Shown here one piece after another: positions 4,993 through 26,925 of a DNA stretch of 64,000 nt. Positions within the stretch are counted from its first letter, which is position 1. Each line of letters begins with the position of its first letter. The translations under genes were made by a program, and so were the position numbers. This stretch comes from an uncultured Spirochaetota bacterium (lineage in GTDB: Bacteria; Spirochaetota; Brevinematia; Brevinematales; JAOACQ01). A model generated the notes under the pieces. The model was given only the letters and a program-made list of their open reading frames with translations, was not told where the DNA came from and did no database searches. The stretch lies in the NCBI GenBank assembly GCA_963783575.1, contig CAWAOD010000004.1, positions 1-64,000 on the forward strand, written 5' to 3'.

Positions 4993-5088
4993 AAATTACT
5001 TCTCCTCAGTGCATATATAGTACCAAAATAAGACTAATTTGTCAAATTAATTATATGCGGGTCCGACCTCAAGACATAGGTAACAATT

Positions 5089-5162
5089 CCAGACAGATCA
5101 AAAAAATCAAACTGTTTGGGGATGGAGGATTATTACCTGAAATTAACTTTTTCTACATGGCC
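5089..5162. mobile_element. Orphan right end of the IS1182 element at 21595-23285
   Basis: Near-identical to 23211-23285, ends ctttttctacatggcc, and is again followed by GTTGTACG. Confidence 0.85.
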
Positions 5163-5230
5163 GTTGTACGCTGAAAGTGCACGCGATGTTGGTTGTTCAA
5201 GCGAACCACGGATGGTGAGCTTGAAATTGT

Positions 5231-5902
5231 TTAATTAATTACTTTCTTTATAAAATGGTTAATATAATTTTCAATTAAAGAACTTAAATTTTTTAGGTAT
5301 AGTTGGTATTTTAAGACTTCATATTCGGATAAACCAGGATCGAGATCTTGATGAATTATCAAGTGTCTTTTTTGTAAAATACTATCTAGAATATTAATAT
5401 CAATTTTTTTACCTTCAAAAATATCTTTACCTTCAATCTGCAAAAACAAGTCAATTAATTCTTGTGACCCGGTTTTTCCTATTGGATATTTTGTTTTTAT
5501 CATAAAAGTTGATTGATTTAAATTAGGACTAAAGTGACTTCCTAAGATTTCAATATATTTTTTTATTTTTTCATATTTTGATTGATCGTAAGCTTCATAA
5601 TTAGTTAGTAATTTATCCAATTTTTGTTCAGCGATAAATAATTTAAGAGAATTTAATTTTATAAAATGAGGAAATTTAGTATAGTTCAAATTATTAGATG
5701 TAATATAGTCTTGAAATTCTTTAAGTATGCTTTCTACAAATACTTGAAAACGAGTAACCATTAATGTAACCGCTAATTTTAAGAATAATGTTCTATTATC
5801 AATATTATCTTCTCTTTCTTCATTTTCAGCATATTTAACGAGTGTATCAACTGCAAGTAAAGATATTATAAATTCATTCTTTGACTCACTTAAAAATGCC
5901 AT
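5231..5902 (-). CDS. HEPN-domain protein (MAE_28990/RiboL-PSP-like), putative RNase
   Basis: Rx4H motif KRHLIIH and N-terminal FQVFVE helix; ATG at 5902 overlaps the DUF262 stop. Confidence 0.7.
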   Translation of the reverse strand: MAFLSESKNEFIISLLAVDTLVKYAENEEREDNIDNRTLFLKLAVTLMVTRFQVFVESILKEFQDYITSNNLNYTKFPHFIKLNSLKLFIAEQKLDKLLTNYEAYDQSKYEKIKKYIEILGSHFSPNLNQSTFMIKTKYPIGKTGSQELIDLFLQIEGKDIFEGKKIDINILDSILQKRHLIIHQDLDPGLSEYEVLKYQLYLKNLSSLIENYINHFIKKVIN

Positions 5903-6986
5903 AATTAATTTCCTCAAACCATAACTTTAATCTCGTTTTGATACTTTCATGATCTGATGTTCTTTTTAATATAGCTTCGAAAAATAATGGGTTGTTTACT
6001 AATTTATCTCTTGCTTTAATAATTAAGTCTTTTTTTGATTTTATTTTATTTTTATCTAATCTAGAAAAACTTATTAAAACACAATCCCCATATGCTTTAT
6101 TAATCAAAGTTGAATTTGATGTTGGAAGTCTTAATCCTAGTTCATTACCAAATACAATTTCAATTTTCTCAAAGGTTTCATTAATTAAATTTTCATATTC
6201 AGAAATTTTCTTTTCATCAATATCTTTATTTCTATCCATAAAATCATTTAAAAATGATTTTAAGCTACCACCATAATTATTAATCGAATAATTGCCATTC
6301 TTTCTTACAAATCCCTCATTAAAAGCCAAAAATCTTATTAAAAATTCTATATCAAGAAATCTATCATGAGGCTTTTTTTGATTAAGTAATTTTAATATTA
6401 ATTTTGTTTCAACCATACTTTTTAATTTTGTATTAAGCAATCCTCTATATAAACAATTACGTAATTCTTGATTGTTAAGTGATACAGCACCTCTATTTAA
6501 CCTCATAAAAATATCATATTTAATATCAGGATGGCTATCTTTTTTTATTACATTTATTCTTAGTAGTCCATCTTTAAATAAATCTCTTGGTTTTTGTGGT
6601 AAATCTTTGAATTTTTTTCCATCAAGTTCTTTAATAATTTCAAGTTTTTTAAGGTTATATTCATTTTGATAATAATTTCTTATTGCTAATAATCTTTGTA
6701 AACCATCAACAACAAGCCATTTCCCATTTTCTTCTTCAGAAAAATATAAGGGTGGAATAGGAACATTCATAATAAGAGATTCAATTAATAGAGAACATTT
6801 GTCATCTGTCCAAACTTTATTTCTTTGAAATGGAACCTCAAGAATAATTTTTGGACTTTCTCCAGACATTAATGACCAAATATAATCGACTGAATAATCA
6901 TAAGAAGCTGTTTCAAGTTTTCTTTTTTCTTTAGGAATATCACGTATATTATCTTCTTCATCTAAAAAAGTCTTTTCTTTTTCCAT
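5886..6986 (-). CDS. DUF262 (ParB/GmrS-like) domain protein
   Basis: FQR..VW, DGLQRL and FMRLNRG motifs; ATG at 6986 with GAGAGGA RBS. Confidence 0.9.
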   Translation of the reverse strand: MEKEKTFLDEEDNIRDIPKEKRKLETASYDYSVDYIWSLMSGESPKIILEVPFQRNKVWTDDKCSLLIESLIMNVPIPPLYFSEEENGKWLVVDGLQRLLAIRNYYQNEYNLKKLEIIKELDGKKFKDLPQKPRDLFKDGLLRINVIKKDSHPDIKYDIFMRLNRGAVSLNNQELRNCLYRGLLNTKLKSMVETKLILKLLNQKKPHDRFLDIEFLIRFLAFNEGFVRKNGNYSINNYGGSLKSFLNDFMDRNKDIDEKKISEYENLINETFEKIEIVFGNELGLRLPTSNSTLINKAYGDCVLISFSRLDKNKIKSKKDLIIKARDKLVNNPLFFEAILKRTSDHESIKTRLKLWFEEINYGIFK

Positions 6987-7082
6987 AAATAATCCTCTCA
7001 ATTTCCAAATCTAATATAAATTAATATAGCGAGGCCAAGGATGGCTGAGCATTTAATTTTCTAGCTTGCGCGCACTTTTTGC

Positions 7083-7116
7083 GTACAACTCAGTATATAC
7101 ACATTGCGTATATTAC
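7083..7116 (-). promoter_or_regulatory. attI-like site of array A
   Basis: AAC-tcagtatatac..cgtatattac matches AAC-tcgatatatac..cgtatattac at the head of array B. Confidence 0.55.
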
Positions 7117-7182
7117 TCAAAGTTTATAGTGATATATACAACAATTACAAAACTTCAATATTGATTCATACAAATTTAAAAG

Positions 7183-7244
7183 TCTTCCGATCAACGGATA
7201 GACATATTTTCATTATAGCATTTTAATTTATTGGTTGTCAAGAA
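7183..7244 (-). promoter_or_regulatory. Cassette promoter (Pc-like) and conserved leader of array A
   Basis: TTGACA (7241-7236), 18 bp, TGcTATAAT (-10 at 7217-7212) pointing into the array; block conserved at 27210-27266. Confidence 0.75.
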
Positions 7245-7381
7245 CAAAAACCTGAACAGCCGGCCATAAACAGAAGGAATTAGTAGTTTAAGCATTCAAT
7301 TAATTATAAAAGAATCGTTTATAAATCTCCCGGCTGTTCTTTTTTACAAGATTTACGGGATAATACAGCGTAGGAAGAATG

Positions 7382-7515
7382 TTACTTTTGCGAGCTGGCA
7401 GGATGCCAGCGTTCCCGCAGATCTGTCCGAAGCACGGATGCGAGTTACGGAGGGACGCAAAAGTCACATTCTTACGAAGCGTTCTTCCCGTCAATACCCC
7501 GCCCTCTCGGGCGTA
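7382..7515 (+). repeat. GC-rich structured intergenic element with several GGA-loop hairpins
   Basis: Outer stem acttttgcg/cgcaaaagt encloses gctggcAGGAtgccagc and gcACGGAtgc; ccgccc..gggcg hairpin at 7499. Confidence 0.45.
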
Positions 7516-7591
7516 ATTTCTCCCGAACATGATCAGAAAAAAAGCAACCTTTTGGAAGGAAAGTATGAAAACATCGTTTTCCGGAATTTTG

Positions 7592-8869
7592 CTACCCCTT
7601 GTTCCTCTTCTGATACCATCTTGCCAGGTTGATAAGAAGCGACGGAAGCACAATTCTTTCGGTGATATTATTATAACGAACGGTCTGCAACAGATTGCCG
7701 ATATCGGAAACAATTTCATGTATTTCTCCGGTATGCGTATTCGGAATGATTCTTAACGAGAGCTTTTTATATTCTTTGTCGATAAATTCCGTGTAATCGG
7801 ATTTACGGATATATTCCTGGCGGGCAAGGTGAAGATTTCTGTAAAATTCTATCAATTCCTGCATAAACAGCAAAGACAATTTATTATTTTCCTCGGAAGT
7901 GATTTCTTCAATAAAAGAAAATATTTCGGTTTCATACTGGATCTTTGGCGCTATCCTGCTGAAAAAATCTATAACCCTGTCCCTTTTTTTTTGAGTATAA
8001 TGATAAATACCGTCTTCCATATAATCAACCGTATTGAAGAAATTTCCTTTAATTTCAGCGCCGAATATTTTCTTAAGTATTGACGGAGAAAGCTTATTCA
8101 TTTTTATGATGACAGAGCGCGACAAAATTGTCGGCAGTATGTTGTCGATGCTGTTTGCGGTAAGGATAATGATGCTTCTATCTGAAGGCTCTTCGAACAG
8201 TTTCAGGCCGGAGTTTTGAGCTTCCTCCGTTGCATTTTCAAAATTTCCGATGACGCTGACTTTATAATCATACTGTGATTTCAGAGAATTGAAAGCTATC
8301 AAATCACGGACGAAATCTATCGGGATACGTTCTTTTTTTGAGACTTCATCCGATACTATTATGCAGTTTTCAACAAATGCAGTATTTCCAGACATTTCTT
8401 CAATAAATTTTCCGTTGATCAAAATCTCTTCCAGATCATTCCTGAAGTCAGCTATCCCATATGCCTCGGATTTACTTCCTTTCTGTTGACCGGCCTTTTT
8501 GATTTTTTTTAATTTAATGGAGCTTTTACCGGTCTCGTTATATGCGATGGAATTGGATATTCTTCCCAAGAGGTAGTAAAAATACTCAACGGCTTTATTA
8601 TGGAGCGCCTCTACGTTGATATTGTTTATAAAAAATCGTGTTTTCAATGAAAAATCATCATTACGGTAAAATTTAAAATCTGCGGATAAGAAGGGATTTT
8701 TATTCAGAATGTCTCTTGCAAAATCGGCGGCAAGCGAGAATTTCCCGGTTCCCTTATCGCCGAGAAGTATAAGAGTCCGTCCGCGGGTTTGTTCCCGGCG
8801 TATTTTTTCAAGGATCGCGGCGGCCTGGTCCTGGCCGATAATCCCGTTCATAACTGCATTTTCACCCAT
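7592..8869 (-). CDS. holB: DNA polymerase III delta-prime-like AAA+ clamp-loader subunit, with a long insertion
   Basis: IIGQD, GDKGTGK, EAQNSGLKLFEEP, ILPTILSRS. Confidence 0.75.
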   Translation of the reverse strand: MGENAVMNGIIGQDQAAAILEKIRREQTRGRTLILLGDKGTGKFSLAADFARDILNKNPFLSADFKFYRNDDFSLKTRFFINNINVEALHNKAVEYFYYLLGRISNSIAYNETGKSSIKLKKIKKAGQQKGSKSEAYGIADFRNDLEEILINGKFIEEMSGNTAFVENCIIVSDEVSKKERIPIDFVRDLIAFNSLKSQYDYKVSVIGNFENATEEAQNSGLKLFEEPSDRSIIILTANSIDNILPTILSRSVIIKMNKLSPSILKKIFGAEIKGNFFNTVDYMEDGIYHYTQKKRDRVIDFFSRIAPKIQYETEIFSFIEEITSEENNKLSLLFMQELIEFYRNLHLARQEYIRKSDYTEFIDKEYKKLSLRIIPNTHTGEIHEIVSDIGNLLQTVRYNNITERIVLPSLLINLARWYQKRNKG

Positions 8870-8883
8870 ATTGAAATATCCCC

Positions 8884-11175
8884 TTAATCGGAAGACGGTT
8901 TGATATCGATGAGATTCAGCCTGACCTCTTCAACTCCCTGGTATTTATTAATCTCAGGTGATACGACAAGATCGAAAAGCAAAGTCTTTTCTCCCGGGCA
9001 ATTCAGCAAACCCTTCATTTTCTGGGCCCAGTTCCATCCGATGACAGGGATATCCTTTCCGTTTTTTGATATGTTCATCAATGAATGGCTGTTGTTCTTC
9101 CCGATTTCCCTGAACGCCGATATCTTAGCTTTTTTGACTATCAGTTTCGGGACCTCGTTACCGTTACCGGTCGGCTCGAGGATGTTTTCAAGATACCTTA
9201 TCATACTTAGCGTCAAATCATCAGTATTGTCCAGAACAGCGTCTATTGAAATTTCATCCTTAAAATCTTCCGGGTTGAATTGCTCCATATACTCCAGCAG
9301 CCTTGCTTTAAACTGTTCCAGATTATCCGACTTTATTATAAATCCCCCGGCCGACTTATGGCCTCCGAATTGTTCCATCAGATCGGAGGTATACTCAAGC
9401 ATTTTCATAACATCAAATCCAAAAACTGCGCGCACCGATCCGCTCGACATCTTTCCGTCAATTGAGATTATTACAGCCGGAAGCTGGAACTGGATGGAAA
9501 GCCGGTTGGCCAAAAGGCCTGTCGTACCTCGTGTAAATTCCTCCGATGATATGAAAATCAGCTTGTTTTTAACGATAGTCTCCTGATCCAGGAATTTATT
9601 GACTATCCCTACTCCGTCATCCACAACGCCTTTCCGGGTATTATCCTTATTCAGAATTTCCTGGACAAGCTCCTCGGCTTCCTTAATTTTATTGGATATA
9701 AGGAGCTCTACACTGAAACTCGCGTCACCGATCCTCCCCGGCGAATTCAGAAGCGGGGAAATGTTCCAGCTTATTTCCCTGCTTGTTATCTTTTCGGTGT
9801 TAAGATTGACCGCCCTAACAAGAAGAATCAGGCCTATTGAAGAATGGGCGATAAGACGGAGCCCTGTTTTTACAATCGTCCTGTTTTCGCCTGTAAGCGG
9901 CATTATATCGGCTATTGTTCCGATAGCGGCCAGCGGAAGGAATTCGAAATATTGCTCCATAAGCTTATTTGTCCTTCCAATGATAAGCCTTCGGTAAACC
10001 TCAGCGCAGAGTTCGCTGTCGGCGACGCTCCGGTGAAGAAAAGCCGGATTGATATAAACACCAAGGTTCTGGCCAATCGTGACAAGTTTATAATCGTTTG
10101 CCTTTTTCAGCATAACCCTGGCCATTTTTAACGTATCTTCCACAGGGTTGGTCAGAGTTACCTGTAAAATCTTTTTAAGATAATTATTGATAAATTTTAA
10201 ATCGAATTCGATGATATTATGGCCGATGATTTTCCTGTCACCGATAAAATTCAAGAATTTTTCAAGCGCTTCCCGGATCGGAATGCCGTCTTTTTCAAGC
10301 ATCTCATTTGTAAGGCCGTTTAACGCGGTAACTTCAGCGCAGACAGGCGTTGAACATTTTATCAGAGACTGAAATTCATCTATTTTAATGCCGTTTTTTA
10401 TCTTTACCGCGCCGATTTCTATAATCTCATCCTTTGTCGGATTCAAGCCCGTTGTTTCGATATCCAGAAAAACGATCTCAAGATTATGATAATCATTGAG
10501 AACATATTTTTCCGACAAAGCGCAGACAAGCTTAAAAGCGACCGAAGACCCGCAGAGCGTGCGGTACGGATAAAAGTCATCATGCATCTTAGGATTGATT
10601 ATGGCGTAAGCTTTTGGAATTACTTCCCTCGGTTCATGATGGTCGGTTATTATTATATCCAGCCCTAATGAATTGGCATACTCAATTTCCTCAACCGATG
10701 AAATCCCGCAATCAACAGTAATAACAAGATTGAACTCATTCATTGCGGCCCAGCTTATAACCTCCTTTGATATTCCGTAATTCTCAAGCCCTTCGGGAAC
10801 CCGGTACACGACATTGGCATCCATTTTTTGAAAAAACTTATAAAGAATTGCGGTCGCGGTAACGCCGTCAACATCCTTATCGCCGAAAATCAAAATTCCC
10901 TGTTTTTCCTGCAGGGCTTTTTCAATCCTGGATATCGCTTTTTCCATATCTTTAAAATAAAACGGTGAATGGAGATTCAAAACAGACGGCTTGGTATATT
11001 CCTGAACTGCCTCGAAGGTGTTTATCCCCCGGTTGATGAGGATGGATGTAATAAATTCGGGATAATGGAACCGGTCCATAAGCGAATCGAGAATCTTCCT
11101 GTCCGGCCTGGGTATATTCCATATCTTTTCAATATTGAAAATACCCTGAACCGGCTGATCTATTTCTTTAGCCAT
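8884..11175 (-). CDS. recJ: ssDNA exonuclease RecJ with an inserted DEDDh/DnaQ-like domain
   Basis: GDKDVDG, ITVDCG, TDHH, TIADIMPL, GGH motifs; internal LDIETTG/GHNIIEFD/HRSVAD. Confidence 0.9.
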   Translation of the reverse strand: MAKEIDQPVQGIFNIEKIWNIPRPDRKILDSLMDRFHYPEFITSILINRGINTFEAVQEYTKPSVLNLHSPFYFKDMEKAISRIEKALQEKQGILIFGDKDVDGVTATAILYKFFQKMDANVVYRVPEGLENYGISKEVISWAAMNEFNLVITVDCGISSVEEIEYANSLGLDIIITDHHEPREVIPKAYAIINPKMHDDFYPYRTLCGSSVAFKLVCALSEKYVLNDYHNLEIVFLDIETTGLNPTKDEIIEIGAVKIKNGIKIDEFQSLIKCSTPVCAEVTALNGLTNEMLEKDGIPIREALEKFLNFIGDRKIIGHNIIEFDLKFINNYLKKILQVTLTNPVEDTLKMARVMLKKANDYKLVTIGQNLGVYINPAFLHRSVADSELCAEVYRRLIIGRTNKLMEQYFEFLPLAAIGTIADIMPLTGENRTIVKTGLRLIAHSSIGLILLVRAVNLNTEKITSREISWNISPLLNSPGRIGDASFSVELLISNKIKEAEELVQEILNKDNTRKGVVDDGVGIVNKFLDQETIVKNKLIFISSEEFTRGTTGLLANRLSIQFQLPAVIISIDGKMSSGSVRAVFGFDVMKMLEYTSDLMEQFGGHKSAGGFIIKSDNLEQFKARLLEYMEQFNPEDFKDEISIDAVLDNTDDLTLSMIRYLENILEPTGNGNEVPKLIVKKAKISAFREIGKNNSHSLMNISKNGKDIPVIGWNWAQKMKGLLNCPGEKTLLFDLVVSPEINKYQGVEEVRLNLIDIKPSSD

Positions 11176-11186
11176 TTTGCCTCCAT

Positions 11187-11335
11187 GGGTTCACTGAAAA
11201 ATGAGTTAAAATTTGAAAACTATAACCAACCTTTTTTAATTGCATTTATAACTCATTGTTATAAAATAGGATATGACACCAATAGAATACTGTTTATTAA
11301 ACTTTTTAAGTTTTATGCTGATTTTCAGTGAACCC
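11187..11335. mobile_element. 149-bp MITE, copy 1
   Basis: TIR gggttcactgaaaa/ttttcagtgaaccc; 6-bp direct repeat CTCCAT; second copy at 27433. Confidence 0.9.
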
Positions 11336-11374
11336 CTCCATGGTAAAACAGCCGGGAAAGATTCATCCCGGTTT

Positions 11375-12301
11375 CTATTTTTCAAGTACAAGCGAGAGCA
11401 GTGCCATTCTTATAAATAAACCGTTATGAGCCTGACGAAAATAAGCCGCCCTCGGATCGCTGTCAACCTCATATTTTATTTCATCAACCCTTGGGAGCGG
11501 ATGCATCACAATTGAATTTTTTGATAAACAGTTCATTATGTTATTATCGATTATATAAATTCCCTTTGTTTTTTCATATTCTTCCATGCTTGAGAATCTT
11601 TCACGCTGAATCCTTGTTTGATAAATTACGTCAACTTTTGCGGCGACTTCTTCAAGACTGTCGGATTCCTCAAAATATACCCCATGCTTTTTCAGATGTT
11701 CTTTGATGTCTTCTTTCATTCTCACATTCGGTGGCGCCACGAAATAGATTTTAATATTCCGGTATTTTGTCAGCAGATACGCCAAGGATCGGACAGTCCT
11801 TCCGTTTGCAAGGTCTCCGACCATGGCAATCGAAATATCATCTATCCTGCCTATTTCTTTATCAATCGTGAAAAGATCCAGTAATGCCTGCGTTGGGTGC
11901 TGACCCGTGCCATCCCCGGCGTTGATAACAGGGACCTGTGAGACTAGACTTGCCTGCCTGGCGGCGCCAGTTTCGAAATGACGTATGACAATCACATCCC
12001 CGTATCCGTTCAGGACACGGATAGTGTCCTCAAGCGTTTCACCCTTTGCCGCGGATGAAAAGCTTGCCGCGTTTTCAGTAGAAATAACGCTGCCTCCAAG
12101 CTTTATCATAGCAGATTCGAACGATAGACGGGTTCTTGTAGAAGGTTCGTAAAAAAGAGTGATAAGGATTTTGTTTTTAAGAACGGTTATTTCCTGGGAG
12201 CGCTTTTCCATCAATCTTGCCGTTTCAAAGATGTTATCCAGGTCTTCCCGGGAAAACTGCTGTGATTCAATGATATGATGCAATTTCATAGCATTCTCCA
12301 T
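11375..12301 (-). CDS. pyrB: Aspartate carbamoyltransferase catalytic subunit
   Basis: FYEPSTRTRLSFE, HPTQALLD, MHPLPR. Confidence 0.96.
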   Translation of the reverse strand: MENAMKLHHIIESQQFSREDLDNIFETARLMEKRSQEITVLKNKILITLFYEPSTRTRLSFESAMIKLGGSVISTENAASFSSAAKGETLEDTIRVLNGYGDVIVIRHFETGAARQASLVSQVPVINAGDGTGQHPTQALLDLFTIDKEIGRIDDISIAMVGDLANGRTVRSLAYLLTKYRNIKIYFVAPPNVRMKEDIKEHLKKHGVYFEESDSLEEVAAKVDVIYQTRIQRERFSSMEEYEKTKGIYIIDNNIMNCLSKNSIVMHPLPRVDEIKYEVDSDPRAAYFRQAHNGLFIRMALLSLVLEK

Positions 12302-12720
12302 TTTTAATTTTTTCTAAATCCGTCTAAGTTTCAGAAATATACCCCAGGATAGAAATTTATTGTATTAAATACTTAATGATCTCCAGAATTTACGAATTGT
12401 AAATATTATAACTTAAAAATGGAATATTTTGAAGTTTTAGTTTAAAAACAATTTTTTATGAAAATGCAGGATTTTTTCTGGAATTTACCGGAACAGTTGT
12501 TCTTTAAATAAAACAGTTTTGTATGGTTAAAAACAGGAGAATGTTGCCATCCAGCCAGGCAATGGGGCTTTCATACCTTCTTTCTTGACAGCAGGAAATA
12601 AGGTGCAAAGAAAGAACCGCCCCTGAAAATACTATCGTTTTTTCCCTTTCATAAAACTTTTACATTATCATTTTGTAAATATTTCCAATACTAAATATAT
12701 TAATTTTCTAATAATTGTCT

Positions 12721-13008
12721 TTATCTGTCAAATCGAAAAAAGGTTTGATCGAAAAATAATGCTATTAAAATAAAATTTAAGCTAAACCCTAGAAAAATGA
12801 ATAATGTCCTTAAATTTAACTTAAATTCATACTTAAGAATAAGAAGAATGAATAGGCTGATTAATAAAAGTAATAATCCAAATATAGTGTTACCGATATG
12901 TGTGGAAAAAATAGCGTTCATTGGTTTTAGATTTTCAAGATATTTTGTCGGATAAGTTTGTTTCATTATAGAACTAAACATAAAAATTTTCAATTCAATT
13001 TGACTCAT
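12721..13008 (-). pseudogene. Small membrane-protein ORF or gene remnant
   Basis: Two hydrophobic segments, no clear RBS or family. Confidence 0.3.
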
Positions 13009-13174
13009 CAGGTTCTTTTCAAACCATAGTTACCGTAAAGCCTCGGTAATGTGGCTTTCACACTTTTTTTGAATGATCAAAAGAAAAAGTGTGCCATGGT
13101 GTTGTTATTCCAAATTTTATAAACGATTCTTAAAGAGCCTCAATTTGCAGTCCTAGCGGCGATCCCTTCGTCAA

Positions 13175-14865
13175 CAGACTGTGTGAAAACTCAGTAAAAT
13201 TTTATAGTAAAATCGATTAATTATACAAAAACTCCATTTTTTGATATATTTTTCAAGCTAAAAAAATCTTAGTTTAAAAAATCTATCCGAATACGATAAA
13301 CGATGGTTTATTAGCATCAAACCAGAGTCATAAGTCTCTTTATTCCCAATATATTCAATACTTTTATTAAATTATGAATGAATCCTGCCAAACTGGATTC
13401 CGTCAGAACGCCATCCTTTCCCTTCATTAAAAAATAACTGTAACCCATATTCCTTTTTATCGATCCAAATGGATGTTCACATATCTCTTTCCTTTTCTCT
13501 ATGATCTTTTTCCCGGCTTCAGAACGAATTTTCCTCTTGAAGTTCTCAATTTCTTCTTTTCTAACTGGTACTTTGATACTTCGTCCTTCCACGCTTTCAG
13601 TACACTTATTTCTTACTTCACATTGGCTGCATAAGCCGCACTTGTACCTGACTATCTCTTTTCCTCCATTGACCTTCTCTACTTTTTTCCCATTTCTCAC
13701 TAATGGGTTTCCCTCCGGACAATAATAAACATTTTGTCCCGGATCATATTTGAATTTATCAACCTGGTATTCTTCAGCAGGTACTCCTTTATTATCTTCT
13801 TTGCCTCGAATCCTTGCCTTATGTCCGTCATCCGGATTCGGCATATATACGTTATGTCCCTTATCTATACATTCCAGTATCTGCGGTTCGCTGTAATAAC
13901 CGGCATCCGATACTTTGACCGTTTCAGTCTCTACCTTAAGCTCGTCCTTTATTTCTTCTACTCGGTCACACATTCCTGCCATCTGTTTGATATCATTGTT
14001 TTCATTCGTCACATCAATCACCACAATCAGTTTATTCGCATCATCTACTGCCATCTGCAGATTATATGCAATGTCGGATTTCCCTTTATCATTCATAAAC
14101 CGGCTTTCCGGGTCATTTGAATAATATTTCTCCATTTCAGGATTTCCCTCAAAAATCTTTTTAATAGCCTCAACTTTATCCTTTTTTGTTTTCATTTTCT
14201 TTAAACGTTCCGCTATCTTTCCGGAAAGAAATTCAAATTCATTCTTTTCTTCCTTATCGTTCTTATCCATCTCGTTCAAATATTCTTCGATCTTTTGATC
14301 TATTCTATGTATGATTTCTTCTATGTTTTTCCTATGATAAACATTGTTATTGTGGTTTTGCGCACTGATCTTGGTTCCATCAATTCCAACAACGTCAAAT
14401 GATAAAAGCCCGGCTTTATGACATATCTTCAAAAATTCTCTGAATATCGACTGTATTCCCTTCTTATTATCTTTCCTGAAGTCGGCAATCGTCTTGAAAT
14501 CCGGCGCTAGTCGTCCAGTCAGCCACATCAACTCTGTGTTTCTTCGGCACTCTCTCTCTAATTTCCTGCTTGTCCTGATTTTATTCAAATATCCGTAAAT
14601 ATAGATTTTTAAAAGTATTTCGGATTTATATGAACTTCTGCCGGTTGATGCTTCTTTTACTTTAAAACCAACTCCTTTCATATTTAGCTTATCAACAAAA
14701 ATATCTATAAACCTTACCGGATCTTCTTCTCCTAACAGATCTTCCAGTGTTTCATTGAACAGAACTATCTGATCCCTTGATTCTCCCTCAATATGCTTCA
14801 TCTTTTACTCCGATTATTTTTGTTCTAATAATTATAGCATATTTACTGTGTTTTCACACAGTCTG
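13175..14865 (-). mobile_element. IS1182-family element
   Basis: Perfect 16-bp IR cagactgtgtgaaaac; CAA direct repeat; inserted in a cccttcgtcaagctcaggg REP-like motif. Confidence 0.92.
13317..14801 (-). CDS. IS1182-family transposase
   Basis: LLKIYIYGY, SRKLERE, PDFKTIADFR, IDGTK, DAGY, EHPFGSIK. Confidence 0.93.
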   Translation of the reverse strand: MKHIEGESRDQIVLFNETLEDLLGEEDPVRFIDIFVDKLNMKGVGFKVKEASTGRSSYKSEILLKIYIYGYLNKIRTSRKLERECRRNTELMWLTGRLAPDFKTIADFRKDNKKGIQSIFREFLKICHKAGLLSFDVVGIDGTKISAQNHNNNVYHRKNIEEIIHRIDQKIEEYLNEMDKNDKEEKNEFEFLSGKIAERLKKMKTKKDKVEAIKKIFEGNPEMEKYYSNDPESRFMNDKGKSDIAYNLQMAVDDANKLIVVIDVTNENNDIKQMAGMCDRVEEIKDELKVETETVKVSDAGYYSEPQILECIDKGHNVYMPNPDDGHKARIRGKEDNKGVPAEEYQVDKFKYDPGQNVYYCPEGNPLVRNGKKVEKVNGGKEIVRYKCGLCSQCEVRNKCTESVEGRSIKVPVRKEEIENFKRKIRSEAGKKIIEKRKEICEHPFGSIKRNMGYSYFLMKGKDGVLTESSLAGFIHNLIKVLNILGIKRLMTLV

Positions 14866-14973
14866 CAAGCTCAGGGCAGGCGAAATACGAACAGATCGAT
14901 TTATATGCCACCAATGATTATAAACTAAAACACCTCGTGAAGATATTCAGCTTATCTGGGGAATTATTAACAA

Positions 14974-15092
14974 GTTAGCCGCCTAAACCTCCAACAGTAC
15001 CTATTTTGACTTTTCCGGCTCGCTTGTAATTGGCAATAATCACTCCGCTTTGTTTAATAGAACTCTATATTAATGTAAATGCTGCCGGAATC
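14974..15092 (-). pseudogene. 3' remnant of a RibD-C/DHFR-like cassette gene ending in an R'' site
   Basis: Reads IPAAFTLI*SSIKQSGVIIANYKRAGKVKIGTVGGLGG*, paralogous to 15693-16286; stop TAA lies inside GGCTAAC. Confidence 0.75.
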
Positions 15093-15125
15093 GTATCACA
15101 AAGATCTATCGTTTTAGTTATGCAC

Positions 15126-15681
15126 TCATTTTTTTGTCGGCTCGTAGTAAAGAGCTACTGCACTACAACCAAATGTTTTTGTTTTTAAGAGTTGAAGATT
15201 AACTCTATCCTTGACGTTTTTAAATAATGGCAAGCCGCTTCCTAAAATAATTGGCTGAACGTCAAGCTGGTATTCATCAATTAAGTCAAATTGCGTTAAG
15301 GCTACTATTAAACTTGGGCTGCCAACTAAAATGTTTTTACCCGCTTGTCGCTTGAGTTCTAAAACATCTTCTTTAATGACTTCCTTTTCCAATTTTGTAT
15401 TTTTCCAATCAACATTTTTCAGCGTTCGTGAAAAAACAATCTTTGAAATATTGTCTATTAATACAGCAAATTCATCTGTTGGTTTGTTACCAGTAGGATT
15501 TTTTACCACAGATGGCCAATAACTTTCCATAAGCTGAAATGTTATCCTTCCAAAATATAATGGTGTCTGCGTTACTAAATAGCTCATTGTAATGTTGAAG
15601 TATTTCATCATCTGCAATCATTGCCGTGTGGTCGCAAAACCCGTCCAATGTCATATTGATTGCTGCAATTAGTTTTCTCAT
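15126..15681 (-). pseudogene. RibD-C/DHFR-like protein, frameshifted; followed by R'' site GCATAAC (15117-15123)
   Basis: MRKLIAAINMTLDG in one frame continues as FGRITFQLM...PIILGSG in another. Confidence 0.82.
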
Positions 15682-15692
15682 TTTATTTCTTC

Positions 15693-16286
15693 TTAAGCTC
15701 CAATAGTACCTGTCTTGACTTTTCCGGCTTGTTTGTAATTAGCAATAATCACTCCACTTGGTGTAACCGAACTTTCTATTAATGAAAATGCCGCCGGGAT
15801 CACGCCATTGATAAATAATTTTTTTCCTTTACCAAGAGTCAACGGGTAAATTTTGAGCCAGAGTTCATCCACTAAATCATTCTTAAGTAGCAGCTGGATG
15901 AGCTTAGCACTGCCCCAAACTTTAATGTCGGAGCCTTTTGAATTTTTGAGTTTTTCGATATCTGCCAAGCTTTTGAGGAAAACTGTGTTTTTCCAATCTG
16001 ACTTTTTCATGGTCTTGGACATGACGTATTTTGTGACATCATTGATACCTGGCCATCCATTTTCATGCTCTGGCCAGTAGGAGGCAAAAATCTCAAATGT
16101 TTTTCTGCCCAAAAGAAGGTCTGCAGGTTTCATCTGTTTTTCCATGACCTTACCAATAACATCGTCACCATAAGGCGCAACCCAACCGCCATATTTGAAA
16201 CCGCCTGATGTATCTTCCTCAGGTGCCCCAGGTGCTTGCATTACTCCATCTAGTGTAATCATTGATATGACGATTATTTTTCTCAT
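15693..16286 (-). CDS. RibD-C/dihydrofolate reductase-like protein
   Basis: MITLDGVMQAPG, LLGRKTF, LVDEL..PLTLGKG. Confidence 0.9.
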   Translation of the reverse strand: MRKIIVISMITLDGVMQAPGAPEEDTSGGFKYGGWVAPYGDDVIGKVMEKQMKPADLLLGRKTFEIFASYWPEHENGWPGINDVTKYVMSKTMKKSDWKNTVFLKSLADIEKLKNSKGSDIKVWGSAKLIQLLLKNDLVDELWLKIYPLTLGKGKKLFINGVIPAAFSLIESSVTPSGVIIANYKQAGKVKTGTIGA

Positions 16287-16532
16287 GTCCCGCCTCCTTC
16301 GTTAAAATTACATCCTCAAATGTTTAATGTCTAAAAACATTTTATCATTATCCTATTTTATTAAACCGTCTTTAGGTCAATTAATAAATACTTTAAGAAT
16401 TCTTTTTAATCAAGTAATTCAAACAAAATATTTACCAATAATCAACTAACCGAAAAATATAGCGCGATTTCATATCGTTTCTTTCGCCAGGACGGTGAAA
16501 CTATTTGCTATTATTAAGCCCACAAGTATTCC

Positions 16533-16616
16533 GTTTAACGGTACGTCCGAGTAGAGAAATCAGTATTGGTAGTGTCCTCTTAGCTTTGCGCAGCTCAGCT
16601 TGAACACCAGTTAGGC
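16533..16616 (-). repeat. attC-like site, 84 bp, with a classical-type first half
   Basis: Minus strand GCCTAAC-tggtg-TTCAAGC ... GTTAAAC. Confidence 0.6.
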
Positions 16617-16647
16617 CGCAGAGTGCTGTTGCGGCCTATAACCCTGC

Positions 16648-17034
16648 TTATTGGCCGGCCGGCGGTTGCCACAGTTCTACTTTGTTTCCTTCCGGATCGA
16701 TGACCCATGCAAACTTTCCATAATCGGATTCATCAATCTTTTCGAGAACGTTACAGCCTTCTTCTCGCAAGGCTTTGACCAATCCCTGAAGGTCTTCTAC
16801 TCTATAGTTGACCATGAAAGGAGCAGAGCTCGGAGCAAAGTGCTCGCTTTCTTGCGGATCGATCAACCACGCAGTTGTACCTGCAACAGGCTTGTCCTCG
16901 GCGTCGGTCCAATCGAAGGCAGCTCCGCCCCATTCTTGGACATCGATTCCTAGGTGCCGCTTATACCAAGCCTGTAGCGCCGGAGCAATCTTGGCCTTGA
17001 AGAAGATGCCGCCAATACCAGTGACTCGTTTCAT
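16648..17034 (-). CDS. VOC/glyoxalase-family protein, GC-rich
   Basis: MKRVTGIGGIFF...YGKFAWVIDPEGNKVELW. Confidence 0.9.
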   Translation of the reverse strand: MKRVTGIGGIFFKAKIAPALQAWYKRHLGIDVQEWGGAAFDWTDAEDKPVAGTTAWLIDPQESEHFAPSSAPFMVNYRVEDLQGLVKALREEGCNVLEKIDESDYGKFAWVIDPEGNKVELWQPPAGQ

Positions 17035-17344
17035 GAGACCTCCTATTTTGATATACTATTTATTGAATCTTCCATAATTTTATTCATCTGTATGTCTTCT
17101 TCAGAAACACTGGCTACAGTATCATCTCCTCTTTACTTGGGCATTTTTTTAGTACAGCTTAATAATAAATTTAACATCGAAACAAACATAATTATAAATC
17201 TTTTTCATCTTTACTCCATAATAAGAAGCATCATCTTTGTTTTAAAAAACTCATCATAGTCAATTAAATCCATATCATTAATACTTTCTGGAATATAATT
17301 CCTCTCCATGCTTTTTTTTGCAAATAATACCAAAGGGGGATAAT

Positions 17345-17710
17345 TTACAATCTTCTTTCTTCCATTAAAGCAAATATATTTTCATCCATATCCTTGAAAA
17401 AGGCTAGCCAGATTTCTTTATCATTGTATTTGGCTGTAAAATGCGGTTCTCTTATTGTTTTTACGCCTTTGTTTTTAATTTTCTCAAACTCGGAATTAAT
17501 TTCGTTTACCATAAAATATATTATCATTCCGAAAGGCTTTTTTTGATCCGATTCATTTTTACCGAGCATCAATCTTATTCCGTTTAAATCAAAAAGGGCA
17601 ACATTATTATCATGGAAAAGGTATTTCAATCCGATCGTATCCCTGTAAAATAACATCGATTTCTCGATATTAGAAACCGTTATTGCAATCTGGCCGATTT
17701 TGTCTATCAT
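17345..17710 (-). CDS. VOC/glyoxalase-family protein
   Basis: IGQIAITV..FYRDTIGL...AFFKDMDENIFAL. Confidence 0.88.
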   Translation of the reverse strand: MIDKIGQIAITVSNIEKSMLFYRDTIGLKYLFHDNNVALFDLNGIRLMLGKNESDQKKPFGMIIYFMVNEINSEFEKIKNKGVKTIREPHFTAKYNDKEIWLAFFKDMDENIFALMEERRL

Positions 17711-17799
17711 AATGCTCTCCTTATTTATTTAAAATTAATAATCCACTTTAAAAAAGTCAATGGTTTTATTTCTTTAGTGTATTGAGAAAAAGGCTTTTT

Positions 17800-17940
17800 A
17801 GATTTTTGACATTTGGATTACACCAAGCTATCAAGTAGCCTATTGGATAACCTTGATATAATGAATCAATTAAATCTCTTACTTTTGAAGCATCCCAGAC
17901 AAAAGGTCCTTGTATTTCTGGAATTATGAAATTGCCTTGA
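17800..17940 (-). pseudogene. N-terminal remnant of a DUF262 gene
   Basis: [29 protein letters not shown]. Confidence 0.75.
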
Positions 17941-18185
17941 AGGATGGCGGCTTTATAATAAAGCACCGCACATGGCGTACAACGTGAAGTGTAAACATCG
18001 TTTGCCGGTGCGATCATAGGGAGCATTGGCATGTGTTTTTGCTCTGCAAAAACCATTACAAAGGCAAATGTGGAAATGTCAAGAGTTTTTCCCATACCTG
18101 TACTCGGGTAATTTCCCACCCCTTCCACAAGAGTTTTTCCCATACCTTCCACGGGAGTTTTTCCCATAGGAGGAGGCAAGAATGG

Positions 18186-18935
18186 TTACTCAACCTCCTT
18201 ATTCAAATTTTGTATTCTGTAAGATTCTCCGCTCAAGTTATAAATATTTGAATGATGTAAAAGCCTGTCCAGAAGAGCTGTTGTCATAATCGGGTCTCCC
18301 ATCATTTCAGCCCAATCCTGAAATCCCTTATTCGATGTTATCACTATCGATGTCTTTTCATACAATTCACTTACAAGACTAAAGAATAGATTTGCCTCCT
18401 TCTTTTCGATAGGTGTGTAACCTATCTCATCAATGATTAATAAGTGTGACTTCATCATCCGGTTCAGCCTGAAAGAAGAACTTCTCTGGATGTCCGTTGT
18501 TTTAAGAAACTTAATGAGAGTAGTCATCCTTTCAAAGCAGACAATATATCCCTTTTCAACTGCCCGGATTCCGATACTAATTGACAGATGCGTTTTCCCC
18601 AGCCCCGGAGACCCAAAGAACAACAGGTTATGATGATTATCAATCCAGCGGAAATCCAATAACTGTGAAACATCCATTTTAGATATTCCATTCACTTTTT
18701 CAAAATTAAAACCTTCCACATCTTTGCGGACTGGGAAATGTGCTCCTGCCATATTCCGCTGAAAACGTTTTTCCACTCTATAATTCAATTCCAGAGAAAG
18801 CAGCCTCTGCAAAAAACTCAGATAAGACTCTTTCGCCTTTTCAGCCTCGCCGATTTCATCGTCAATCCGTTTAATCATCCCCTTCAACCCGAGAGTTGCA
18901 AGCTGCGTTATGATTTGTTCTCTTATCTTCAACAT
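18186..18935 (-). CDS. istB: IS21 helper ATPase IstB
   Basis: GSPGLGKT, LLIIDEIGY, TSN, ALLDRLLHH. Confidence 0.95.
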   Translation of the reverse strand: MLKIREQIITQLATLGLKGMIKRIDDEIGEAEKAKESYLSFLQRLLSLELNYRVEKRFQRNMAGAHFPVRKDVEGFNFEKVNGISKMDVSQLLDFRWIDNHHNLLFFGSPGLGKTHLSISIGIRAVEKGYIVCFERMTTLIKFLKTTDIQRSSSFRLNRMMKSHLLIIDEIGYTPIEKKEANLFFSLVSELYEKTSIVITSNKGFQDWAEMMGDPIMTTALLDRLLHHSNIYNLSGESYRIQNLNKEVE

Positions 18936-20482
18936 TGCCGGCCCCCAATGGAACTACAGAGTCTCTGGTATTTCCCGATGTCTGATTTGGCTACTTCCAG
19001 ATAGTGTTCAGGATTCATAAGTGGCCTGACTATCTTTTCTACATTCATAGGTATTTCTAAATGTTCTATTTTCAGACAGTTCCGGTAATTATCCCATAAA
19101 TCCTTCATTGAGTAACTATCATTATCCAGACAGTTTGAGATCGCTTGTGTCAGCTTATCTGTATCAATTATCTTGTCCCTGAAGTATTTTCTTCCGGAAA
19201 GACATTGGTCCCTTACATAACGATTGAACTTCCTGAAATTACATTCAAGAAAATCCTTCCAGCCGGGAATATCAAAGTACCCGCTTACTTCTTCTTTCAA
19301 TAACTGCACAGTCTTTCCCATTTCCCGGATCATTGCCCTGTTGGTTACAATCTGCCCCGGAATCACTGAAAGCCGGTATTCGGCGATTTGCTCACCCGTA
19401 ATCCTGTCAAAGACAAAAAGCAGGCTGTCAGTTTTGTAAATGTCAACCGAACCGTTCCTGTATTTTTCAGGTATATCATACTGGCTTGTGCCCACAGCGA
19501 TCCGGCATTTGTCACTCACACTGCGAGCTTCCCTTGCACCGATCCTGTCCTTACGGAATATAGAATTCCTGACCGGCCGGAGATATGGCCTTTCCGTTTC
19601 AATCTCTATCAGCGGTATTTTCATGGTTGCCTGGGATATTCTCCCGTTGGCTTTTCTTTCCAGCCATTTCAACAGGCTTTCATCTGCTTCCAATAAACTG
19701 TTGAACTCCCTGACCGCAAAAAAACTATACTTGATGAATTTGGCCACATTTTCGATCTTTCCCTTGCTTTCCGGGTCTGAAGGCCGGCATACATACAATT
19801 TAAGACCCATTTCATCTTTGAAATACTGAAAGTCTTTCGTGTAGATGATATCGCCGGAGTTCTCACTCACAACCATCGTGCAGTCCTGATCGATGACAAG
19901 TTCCTGCGGTATCCCGCTCATATATGCGAAACAGTCCAATAGATGATTGATCAGGTCTTCTGTCCGGAATGGCCTCTCCTGGAGGGCCGCATACTTAAAA
20001 CGACTGGCGGATAACACCGCGGCAAATATGTAATACCTTCTGCCATATCTGTCGGTATATTGACCGAAATCAAGCTGGAGCTGCTTTCCATATGGCATGT
20101 CCGGCACTTTTGTGTAATACCGGCGCTTTTCATTCAAGGTAAGCTGCCCGCTTTCAATCAGGTAATGTACGAAATTCCTCATCGTATTTTCATTCGCCGG
20201 AAGTTTGCCTTTTACCTCCAATAAATAGTCATACAAAGCAGACATATTCAGCCGGATGTAATCATTCTTTGCATATACTTTCAATATGTCTGTTTTTATT
20301 CCTTCGAATTCTTTTTCACGGAAAGAGAATTCCATCAGGCTTTTCTGGTATTCGGAATCGTTCATAGCCCAATATTTTCGGACTGTCTTAATATCTATTG
20401 ACAGTTCCCGGGATACACCATTTTTACTTTTCCCCAAAAGTTTCAGTTTTTTTATGTCCTGATACATAATATTTTTCACCAT
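18929..20482 (-). CDS. istA: IS21 transposase IstA
   Basis: QLDFG, PQELVID, PESKGKIE. Confidence 0.94.
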   Translation of the reverse strand: MVKNIMYQDIKKLKLLGKSKNGVSRELSIDIKTVRKYWAMNDSEYQKSLMEFSFREKEFEGIKTDILKVYAKNDYIRLNMSALYDYLLEVKGKLPANENTMRNFVHYLIESGQLTLNEKRRYYTKVPDMPYGKQLQLDFGQYTDRYGRRYYIFAAVLSASRFKYAALQERPFRTEDLINHLLDCFAYMSGIPQELVIDQDCTMVVSENSGDIIYTKDFQYFKDEMGLKLYVCRPSDPESKGKIENVAKFIKYSFFAVREFNSLLEADESLLKWLERKANGRISQATMKIPLIEIETERPYLRPVRNSIFRKDRIGAREARSVSDKCRIAVGTSQYDIPEKYRNGSVDIYKTDSLLFVFDRITGEQIAEYRLSVIPGQIVTNRAMIREMGKTVQLLKEEVSGYFDIPGWKDFLECNFRKFNRYVRDQCLSGRKYFRDKIIDTDKLTQAISNCLDNDSYSMKDLWDNYRNCLKIEHLEIPMNVEKIVRPLMNPEHYLEVAKSDIGKYQRLCSSIGGRQC

Positions 20483-20762
20483 TCCTGCCTTCCTTTAATG
20501 AATTTTCATTAAAGGTAATCTTCAAGCCTCTCTATGGGAAATCTGTTTGTGACAGGTATGGGAATTTCATTTATTGCTACCCTGGTAAATTAGTTTATCA
20601 TTTCCAAAATGTGCCGAAGGCCAAAGGGGCGACAAAGCGCTTACACTGGGTTGTACGCCGTTGCTTGTCGATTATTAAATAATTTTTACCACTAACCACG
20701 ATGGGGAGTTGATAATTGACTATTCATTCAAATTTGAATACATTATATTAAGGAGGATGATT

Positions 20763-21227
20763 ATGTCAATAATTGTTGATTTCAAAAAAGTATCCAAGGT
20801 TGGTCTAGAATCTTCCCCTGTATCAGAAGCGCTTGCCGGTTTGCGCGCTAATGAATCCCGATTCTTAAAGAACAAATTCAATCATGATTTTTCAGTAAAA
20901 GCTGCAAGCGAAAGCCAAGACACTTTAGACTATGTAAACCGAATTCTGAAAAACGAAAGAGATATTGAGATCGTTTCAAAACCTCTTGAGACCTCATTAT
21001 TTCAAGTGGGGAACATCAAATATGCTTATGTTTTCTATGAGAATGGCCTTGGGATAAACGTTATGTATACGATTGATGATCCCAAGAAGCGAGCTGTAGG
21101 TTTTAAACTTTCAGAAGGGATGGAAGTACCAAAAGAATTAGAAGGAAAATTTAGGTTTGCAAGGCAAAAGTCTAAACTGGCTGGAGCTATTCGTGGTTCA
21201 TTTTTAGTGATTAAGGGAGATTATTAG
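20763..21227 (+). CDS. Conserved hypothetical protein, inverted inside cassette B3 (20650-21355)
   Basis: AGGAGG RBS, own TTGACT-17-TACATT promoter; 154 aa with LAGLRANE and KRAVGFKLS motifs. Confidence 0.75.
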   Translation: MSIIVDFKKVSKVGLESSPVSEALAGLRANESRFLKNKFNHDFSVKAASESQDTLDYVNRILKNERDIEIVSKPLETSLFQVGNIKYAYVFYENGLGINVMYTIDDPKKRAVGFKLSEGMEVPKELEGKFRFARQKSKLAGAIRGSFLVIKGDY

Positions 21228-21348
21228 GATTGGTATGATCTATAGAATATTTAACAGATTATAACTCACAAATAATAAATCAATTATCCACACTAATTCT
21301 TCAGATGTCGGATTAAAGAAAAATATAAATTTCTGGTTGAGCAAAGAC

Positions 21349-21594
21349 GTACAACGTTGCAGCCATAAGAATCCCACAAGCCTTAGAGCTAGCCCCGCGC
21401 GCTTAGGCTTGCAAATGTGGTGAGCCCGTAAACAATGATTTCTATTTTATTAATCATCATAGTCAATTTGAACTCCTTCCTCTTTATCAAAAAGTAAATA
21501 CGGGCGAACCCGAGGAGCGCAGGAAAAACTTTTTCTTCTTCTCCGTTATGCCCCGAAAAGTTTTTTCGAGCACCGAAGAGTTATAGCCGCGGTT
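21349..21594 (-). repeat. Long attC-like site (about 250 bp), copy 1
   Basis: Highly similar to 25734-25985; AAC...tatagccgcgGTT ends. Confidence 0.82.
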
Positions 21595-23285
21595 GAGCCT
21601 GTAGAAAAAGTCCGTCATTCATGTACAGAATATCGTATATACTTTAAAATATATTGGAAATAAAATCAAGAGGTAAAAGCAATTATGGCAAGATATAAGA
21701 AAGTTAATTACGATCAAATGGAACTCATTCCTGTATCATTCGACGAGCAGATAATTCCCGGAACCTTCGAATATACATTGAGCTTTCTTGTCGACAATAA
21801 AATTGATCTTAAAATCTTTGAGAATAAGTATAAGAACGACGCTACCGGTGCCCCGGCTTATAATCCGTGGGTTATGCTGAAGATAATACTCTACAGCTAT
21901 TCCCGCGGTATTTTTACATCACGTGAAATCGAGTATTTGTGTAAAACGAATATTATAGCCAAAGCCCTTTCTGCCAATTCAATACCGCACTTTACTTCCA
22001 TCGCCGATTTTGTATCATCGATGAAAAATGAGATAAATAACGTTTTCCTGAATATATTAATGGTTTGTGACGAACTGAACCTCATAGGCGGTGACATGTT
22101 CGCGCTGGACGGGTGTAAATTATCATCGAATGCATCGAAGGAATGGAGCGGAACATTTAAGGATTTGAGGAAGAAAAAAAGAGAAGCTGGAAAACCTGGT
22201 TAAGGAAATGCTTGATGAACATGAAAAGCGTGATCAGGATGGCGGTTTTCCTGAGAAGAAGAAGGAAAAGGATCTTGCAAGAATTGAAAAAATTTTAAAG
22301 AAAGCGGAAAAGATAGAAAAGTTTCTGGAAAGTGAAAAACCCAAAGACAAGGCACGGCATGGCGAAAAACAGTCCAATGTCACTGACAACGAGAGTGCGA
22401 AAATAAAGAGTTCACATGGTGTTATCCAGGGCTACAACGGACTTTCTGTAGTGGATTCGAAATATCAGGTTGTGGTATATCCGGAAGCTTTCGGCAGCGG
22501 GTCGGAAGGAGAATTCCTAAAAGGCATGGTCCGTAAAACAAAAGTAATGATGGGAAATCTGGGAAAAGATATAAGCGGTGGGATAGTTCTGGCGGACACC
22601 AATTATTTCAGTGCCCTGTGATACCGGATAATCATTTCCGTAAGCGGGATGCACGTTTCAGGGATATGGACAGGTTCAAACCTGCAAAGAAAGGACAATA
22701 TACAATTGATGATTTTCAATATGATCCGGAAAATAATGTTTATATATGCAAAAAAGGAGAGGAACTCAGGTTCAGATATAACCATACTGTTAATCATATT
22801 ACATACGCGAAATATATCTGCCGGTTATCGGCCTGCCGTAATTGTCCGTTCCGGAAAGACTGCTTAAAAAAGGAGACGACAAAATACCGCACATTGCAAA
22901 GGCCGTTAAATGCAGATAACAGACATTACTCGGATGAGATGAAAAAGTTCATAGACAAACCTGAAGGCAGAAAGCTTTATGCGAAAAGAATGGCTATAGT
23001 TGAGCCTGTATTCGGTAATATCAGGGCATGTAAAGGTATGGATCGATTTACGTTGAGGGGAAAGGGAAAAGTGAATATTCAATGGGTATTATATAATACT
23101 GTGCACAATATCGGGAAAATTCAGGTCTATGGAGGTATATAATGGCATAGTGATGGAATAAAAACAGTTTTGCCGGTAAATTCAGCCCGGTTTTATAAAA
23201 ATAAAGTAATTCCAGACAGATCAAAAAAAACAAACTGTTTGGGAATGTAGGATTATTACCTGAAATTAACTTTTTCTACATGGCC
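21595..23285 (+). mobile_element. IS1182-family element inserted at the GTT core
   Basis: IR tgtagaaaaagt/actttttctaca; GTT(G) duplicated on both sides. Confidence 0.88.
21685..23142 (+). pseudogene. IS1182 transposase in three pieces
   Basis: MLKIILYSY/LDGCK, GYNG/ADTNY and VEPVFGNI motifs split across ORFs 21685, 22208 and 22618. Confidence 0.88.
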
Positions 23286-23701
23286 GTTGTACGAAGGGCA
23301 CGACATATTATAAAAACCGCCACGGACGGCGGATATTAATTTATATGCTATAAAATTATTCTAATGAATTATTATTAATTACAAAATTATTTAGAATTTG
23401 TAATAGACTTTTTTGACCACAAAATTGTATTCCTTTTTTTAGGTAATATAAATGATAACCTGGTTTAACTAACTTACTGAATACTAGGAAATAAAGGTCT
23501 TGTTTAGAATAAAATTTGATTAATTCATTAAAAACTTCTGAATATAATTTAAAATAACCAATTTCACATAAAGCGCATAAAGAATAGATTGCTTTATTAG
23601 ATAAAGAATTTGTTATTTTGTCAGTAATTTCATTTTGAACATCATTATAAGATTCTTTTTCGAATCTATTAACAAAGTCTAAATATAATATTAAATAATT
23701 A

Positions 23702-25733: not shown

Positions 25734-25985
25734 GTTTAACGGTGCGGCTATACGACATTTGCAAGCCTTAGCACCAGCCCCGCGCGCTTAGGCTTGCAAA
25801 TGTGGTGAGCCCGTAAACAATGATTTCTATTTTATTAATCATCATAGTAAATTTGAACTCCTTCCTCTTTATCAAAAAGTAAATACGGACGAACCCGAGG
25901 AGCGCAGGAAAAACTTTTCTCTTTCTCCTCCGTTACGCCCTGAAAAGTTTTTTCGAGCACCGGAGTGATATAGCCGCGGTTAAGT
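25734..25985 (-). repeat. Long attC-like site (252 bp), copy 2, intact
   Basis: Minus strand ACTTAAC (RYYYAAC) ... GTTAAAC (GTTRRRY); terminal stem aaccgcggctata/tatagccgcaccgtt; internal hairpins. Confidence 0.85.
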
Positions 25986-26883: not shown

Positions 26884-26925
26884 ACTTAACTCGATATATA
26901 CGAAGTTTACTTCGTATATTACCCC
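26884..26925 (-). promoter_or_regulatory. attI-like site of array B
   Basis: GTTAAGT core next to palindrome atatacgaagt-tt-acttcgtatat; homologous to 7083-7116. Confidence 0.55.

Follow-up and report, generated by a model that had tools for sequence, protein, structure and literature searches.

Elements that specialise on attC, the recombination site of integron gene cassettes, have been described from unrelated groups. Group IIC-attC introns enter R'' on the attC bottom strand, at TTGT/T and opposite to cassette transcription, and so part a gene from its attC (PMC7923331, PMC3001079; articles are cited here by accession, each for the passage that bears on the point). The IS1111-attC group (ISPa21, ISPst6) consists of attC specialists that lie near the 5' end, antisense to the array (PMC3001079). 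Insertion sequences (ISs) of the IS1182 family, including IS1272/TnSha1 of staphylococci, combine a DUF772 and DDE transposase of about 500 amino acids (aa) with short inverted repeats and a preference for palindromes (PMC5678879, which credits the palindrome-targeting members to Siguier et al.). Here we analyse a stretch of 64,000 nucleotides (nt), hereafter the window, from the genome of an uncultured Spirochaetota bacterium (G000; assembly GCA_963783575.1, contig CAWAOD010000004.1, positions 1 to 64,000), where an IS1182-family element stands at the R'' triplet of an attC-like site.

We consider it probable that this element targets the R'' AAC/GTT triplet of attC, antisense and with duplication of GTT, that its transposase finds the foot of the folded hairpin, and that the IS would then travel with the cassette.

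Results

The element and its target duplication

The copy in the window (Table 1) has 17-bp terminal inverted repeats and is 91% identical (1531 of 1680 columns) to an intact copy on contig C16. DUF772 and DDE_Tnp_1_6 domains are found in the pieces of its transposase, and the intact protein of the C16 copy (P0001) scores 278.6 against NF033551, the NCBIfam model of IS1182, where the cut-off is 270. Residues D142, D234, D301 and E449, candidates for the DDE catalytic triad, are invariant among 68 homologues; a sequence search for a relative of solved structure found none. The inverted repeats go with a short target duplication, 3 bp of GTT, which was checked against empty paralogous sites.

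A first, sequence-only reading of this DNA had placed the IS exactly at the boundary of attC and cassette, with GTT(G) duplicated. Boundary and GTT are borne out, the fourth base is not: in 3 of 17 copies an A or a C follows the right-hand GTT, which limits the duplication to 3 bp and rejects one of 4 bp. The G at the left-hand junction is part of the IS and not of the duplication.

Three known identities do not fit. Stem-loop replacement of the IS1272 type does not apply, since the hairpin is retained and GTT duplicated; there is no reverse transcriptase domain and no ribozyme match in Rfam, as a group IIC-attC intron would have; and the IS110/IS1111 DEDD domain of the IS1111-attC group is absent from the window transposase.

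Flanks of the copies in the genome

Copies were found by end sequence alone. GTT stands at all 9 left ends and all 17 right ends, more than chance would give from its background of about 149,300 in 9.8 million positions on both strands (1.5%). Seven of the 9 left ends adjoin complete attC-like hairpins, 155-244 bp long; in the empty paralogues of these sites GTT is single. One left end is supplied by a 109-bp gene-less element that has the same IS ends and sits at the same attC position. A whole 494-aa transposase frame is present in one of the nine genome stretches examined, that on C16. The attC-like sites were located with position weights built from 11 empty sites; a genome-wide hairpin scan was discarded as too noisy (167 matches, mostly chance).

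Two further IS1182 families of the genome served as controls. None of the 36 left ends of family A lies at GTT, its target being a short palindrome, and the target context of family C likewise differs from that of the attC-targeting IS. Elsewhere, at C10:83731-86278, left-end and right-end pieces of the IS flank three passenger genes, without a transposase and with GTT on both sides.

The arm of attC that is occupied

The site used in this genome is the R'' inverse core triplet: AAC after the gene stop, GTT on the bottom strand. The near arm, adjoining the IS, has bulged bases and the far arm extra spacer bases, an asymmetry like that described for the bottom strand of attC in the direction from R' to R'' (PMC5027507); together with genes that end just before the IS, it identifies the site as R''. 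The IS is antisense to the cassette genes, which stop just 5' of it in the arrays of C4, C5, C9, C10 and C16 (C13 and parts of C5 and C12 were judged from their junctions instead). Most of 14 cassettes checked have a start complementary to the end adjoining the IS; the exceptions are the window segment holding an ISNCY element and a cassette common to C5 and C9. On C5 the array runs from an integrase-like gene through an attI-like head to the cassettes, all on one strand, and the same type of head starts arrays on C9, on C16 and twice in the window.

The proposal of an attC-core-specific IS1182 therefore stands for attC, in this genome and in relatives, and falls for the crossover core, the site being R'' and not R'. 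None of 27 R' arms, chosen by eye from 62 candidate pairs, is occupied, which rejects insertion at the crossover triplet in this genome. In triplet, L-box sequence and the bases downstream, these unoccupied arms match R''.

As for the sites themselves, AAC/GTT is invariant, the L boxes pair, the R' arm has a spacer 2 nt longer, and the sites follow one-gene cassettes in arrays behind an attI-like head, as expected of attC. Several sites show a bulge on the R'' arm. The outer four bases of the R boxes often differ from RYYY, and the length is 152-245 bp, against 57-141 bp published for attC (PMC5027507).

Relatives and the choice of arm

The transposase has matches in 2 of 60 related genomes and in 10 of 400 genomes of the phylum; a genome-collection scan with a single transposase protein gave 2 loci, and in a plasmid collection 3 of 72,556 records match, at 36-49%. 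We examined 102 related loci, including the best 80 of 567 metagenome loci, and called their IS ends from the repeat motif with the flanks ignored. In genomes G001 and G011 (54-88% identity), all 9 whole copies are flanked by GTT on both sides, and 7 of the 9 lie at attC-like hairpins. The flanks, tabulated in this genome and in relatives as the sequence-only reading had wished, support targeting of attC by an IS1182, with 7 of 9 left ends here and 7 of 9 whole copies in G001 and G011 at hairpins.

Among the 86 related loci with both ends called, 52 are GTT/GTT, 8 AAC/AAC and 26 other. These flank types sort by clade on a FastTree tree of 90 transposase proteins (15 loci were left out as duplicates or fragments; the deep order is not settled). 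Arms were assigned by two rules, from the bulged arm and from gene direction; at 15 sites both rules reach a verdict, and there they always concur. In clade X (support 1.00), at least one rule assigns 21 of 29 GTT sites to R', and none is R''; in the clade of the window element 12 of 15 are R'', with one R' by the gene rule alone. Two single-contig genomes, G331 and G379, whose integrases pass as true IntI (384 and 380 bits), hold clade X elements at R' of textbook attC, sense to the cassettes.

The sister of the window-element group has AAC on both sides. At all 4 of its loci with long flanks, genes stop 16-35 nt before AAC on the IS strand, and the full partner arm is present in one; this layout corresponds to R'' with the IS flipped, in sense orientation. 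In another clade (22 loci), 19 of 20 have other triplets. R'' is also occupied at canonical-looking attC (L068, L070, L071, L087). Target sequences diverge widely between lineages, the position at the hairpin foot being constant. Lineage-specific choice of the attC arm by attC-targeting IS1182 elements is what the present analysis adds.

We suggest tentatively, with less confidence than in the targeting itself, that a widespread IS1182 lineage reads folded attC as an integrase does, that the arm was switched in evolution (R' sense, R'' antisense, R'' sense), and that the elements, their ends rebuilding the R box, may hitch-hike by way of integrases, including the patch-less type with long attC sites described below. 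On that reading the transposase would be a structure-targeted, sequence-tolerant DNA insertion enzyme.

G011 also holds a second, distant transposase family (488 aa, 23% identity to P0001; L185, L186, L183, L189) with similar ends. It enters the same attC sites in antisense orientation, but at a point 4 nt within the R'' spacer; two of its copies (L190, L191) are at non-attC look-alike sequences.

Fate of occupied cassettes

Insertion had been expected to lock cassettes in place, an idea for which we find no support as far as the insertion itself is concerned. The attC hairpin is contiguous after insertion, and the left end of the IS turns R'' into a consensus RYYYAAC box. Predicted folding puts the cost of an enforced R box at 0-5.7 kcal/mol for 7 occupied sites, within the range of 13 empty ones (0-6.9); removal of the IS in silico improved three sites and worsened four. 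The function of attC depends on its fold more than on its sequence (PMC5027507; PMC2811028), and integrases tolerate sequence change at the R'' box (PMC2811028). Because attC stays contiguous, the R'' box is rebuilt, predicted folding lies within the range of empty sites and integrases are tolerant there, locking would not be expected from insertion itself. Immobilisation is seen only after secondary deletions that remove attC, as at 5089-5162.

That piece had been noted as a 74-bp copy of the IS right end. Of its 74 positions 71 agree with that end, the next 8 bases are shared as well, and the match reaches back to 5085. It is the deletion stub of a former insertion, because the adjoining cassette (7089 to 5163) has a complementary start and end while the remaining IS and the attC are gone. 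Eleven junctions, this one among them, show only a right-end piece and have lost attC; right-end stubs are commoner than left-end ones.

At C13:203400-214100 and C12:23300-25260, repeated junctions consist of R'', a 45-80 bp stub of the IS right end, a shared spacer and an attI-like arm, whose GTT is often mutated; the attC hairpin is absent there. These junctions recall delta-attI-type cassettes (PMC12901181).

A 4156-bp unit of cassette plus IS, starting at the R' triplet, is present on both C5 and C9, where the attC site that precedes it is not the same. At C5:472170-472321 lies a chimeric attC, with an R'' arm from one family and an R' arm from another, the one found after the same cassette on C9; it could record a circular intermediate.

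An integron-like host system

The integrase-like gene of this genome (C5:457129-458250) is frameshifted and lacks the IntI insertion, or patch, as judged by the patch motif. The best integrase match reaches 100.5 bits, below the family cut-off of 265 (TIGR02249). An intact counterpart of the same kind (353 aa) occurs at G011:C2:46684-47746, with several related copies and, by eye, no IntI insertion. The arrays here are integron-like by anatomy, yet their integrase does not pass as IntI.

Arrays with attC-like sites of 152-245 bp behind a co-oriented, patch-less tyrosine recombinase were seen in G000 and G011 (L139, L182), and may represent integrons of an atypical kind. Integrases in the inverted orientation have been described from Treponema (PMC4889954).

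Other features of the window

The first array ends in a Phd/YefM-ParE toxin-antitoxin pair (4371-4992), linked to the IS stub by a short stretch that looks like the terminus of a different IS. An IS21 element (18071-20606) and an ISNCY element (23690-25570) both interrupt cassettes of the same array; the latter has four near-identical copies in the genome.

Table 1 Coordinates of the features discussed, as positions in the window.
Feature	Position	Strand	Remarks
IS right-end stub at R'' of the first cassette, second array	5085..5162	+	Rest of the IS and attC deleted
Cassette with GmrSD_N and RiboL-PSP-HEPN genes	5163..7089	-	Start and end complementary
attI-like array head	7087..7111	-	Same motif 3' of the integrase-like gene on C5
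IS1182 family A copy	13175..14865		One of 36 genomic copies; lies within a short repeated palindrome
Occupied attC-like site, 242 bp	21353..21594	-	R'' at 21592-21594, R' at 21353-21355
Left GTT of the target duplication (3 bp)	21592..21594	+	R'' triplet, attC side
IS1182-family insertion sequence, 1691 bp	21595..23285	+	Antisense to the cassette array; assigned from ends, flanks, DUF772 and DDE_Tnp_1_6
Left terminal inverted repeat	21595..21611	+	First four bases complete the new RYYYAAC box, cassette strand
Transposase gene in three pieces (172, 137, 174 aa)	21685..23142	+	Four indels relative to the intact copy
Right terminal inverted repeat	23269..23285	+	14 of 17 positions match the left repeat
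Right GTT of the target duplication (3 bp)	23286..23288	+	R'' triplet, cassette side
Empty attC-like site of the same family, single GTT	25738..25981	-	Empty-site control, paralogue of 21353..21594
attI-like head, variant, of the array holding the full IS	26888..26912	-	
IS1182 family C copy	37937..39664		In a purine/pyrimidine hairpin

Discussion

We now propose a sequence of events for the element in the window. The DDE transposase would recognise the foot of a folded attC by its triplet and by the asymmetry of the hairpin, with its short-spacer, bulged-base arm, and this asymmetry would set the arm. A 3-nt staggered cut across the triplet would then leave GTT duplicated. Since insertion preserves the hairpin and leaves a consensus R'' box, the IS would be carried inside the cassette and travel with it, occupied attC presumably continuing to recombine. 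The IS would gain a landing site that is neutral, repeated and mobile. For the array, any cost would be secondary, when same-direction copies recombine and deletions strip attC, leaving stubs like that at 5089-5162.

Several observations weigh against this reading. Two of the 9 left ends in the genome have the near arm without a partner (C10:86278, C16:115956), and a looser end scan, which added few ends among many chance matches, gave one changed triplet and one offset by 1 base. In G011 one copy is intragenic and another has landed on an older IS, at its end. Other flanks occur at 26 of the 86 related loci, 19 of them in one clade. At most sites taken singly, the hairpin scores no higher than its best shuffled partner. 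The arm rules and clade lists were fixed after the data had been seen, and many loci are kin, some being duplicates or from a single genome. As to travel with the cassette, an excised circle or joint was looked for in two of four sequencing runs (best share 0.21) and none was seen; the integrase-like gene is moreover broken and patch-less, so that recombination of these sites can only be presumed. The attC downstream of the C5/C9 unit differs too, so that IS-by-IS recombination explains the unit as well as integrase movement does. Recombination between IS copies is at work in this genome, given that difference and the mosaic make-up of the copies: the four-gamete pattern appears in 786 of 1776 pairs of distant sites and in 29 of 340 pairs of near ones.

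The half-sites, the in-gene site and the tandem site on an older IS end would find a ready account if the transposase read a duplex motif that attC happens to carry, namely bases resembling an L'' box at a constant spacing from GTT. The R' and R'' arms here differ chiefly by spacer length, and the distant IS1182 family of G011, too, is at two look-alikes that are not attC, both in keeping with such a motif. We nonetheless judge it unlikely: loose motifs number 198-1140 in this genome, far above the number of IS-holding attC sites, and the targets of the clade vary in sequence but remain at hairpin feet. The half-sites, for their part, may stem from later deletions.

Less probable still is that the host does the targeting, the transposase following a bound integrase or single-stranded DNA at the fork, by which arm and orientation would be fixed. 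The five genomes considered for this fit such a rule, R' being used beside true IntI (G331, G379) and R'' beside patch-less integrases (G000, G011, G176); however, R'' is also used at the canonical-looking attC listed above, arm choice tracks the transposase tree, and the best integrase match of the window genome is a broken gene. Because GC skew is so weak here, leading and lagging strands could not be told apart, nor strand bias checked.

That a loose GTT specificity was sharpened by selection and array duplication, or that occupied sites are dead and so persist, as in the locking idea, we regard as very improbable. In favour of it, mosaic copies are not independent events and many cassette ends bear stubs without attC. 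Against it, intergenic GTT is abundant while the equally neutral R' arms are never used (0 of 27), occupied cassettes and attC families vary between copies, and the pattern repeats at 41-88% transposase identity.

Targeting by the transposase at the hairpin foot, which we prefer, has several consequences. Sister lineages with different arms make hairpin reading by a DDE transposase directly testable. One way in which arrays decay is accounted for, and the annotation of cassettes can be misled by 1.7 kb of DNA inserted between a gene and its attC. Enzymes of the IS110/IS1111 family are DEDD recombinases guided by a bridge RNA. For the present elements, a search for guide-RNA targeting found in 14 of 15 no longer word shared with the target than in shuffles, and no Rfam match.

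In the literature searched, mostly open-access, we found no description of IS1182 at attC, although an entry in ISfinder or in reviews is possible; the pertinent passages of PMC9137128 and PMC3971601 mention none.

The locus may be compared with several known systems. Its arrays share with integrons and CALINs (clusters of attC sites lacking integron-integrases) that have a co-oriented, or 'inverted', integrase the attI-like head, the one-gene cassettes with complementary ends and the hairpins bulged on the R'' arm; they differ in their longer attC and in an integrase that is patch-less and below the IntI cut-off. IS1272, of the same family, replaces a stem-loop without duplication (PMC5678879, in its account of that element), whereas the window IS keeps the attC hairpin and duplicates 3 bp at its foot. 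The IS1111-attC group is equally devoted to attC and antisense to the array, but its recombinase belongs to another protein family than the window transposase. Group IIC-attC introns come closest in target, with the same triplet and orientation as the window IS; unlike it, they are RNA retroelements with a reverse transcriptase, and have neither terminal repeats nor a target duplication. If our reading is correct, the window IS belongs to a third, unrelated class specialised on attC, works by a DDE transposase that is not RNA-guided, and has converged on the triplet that these introns use.

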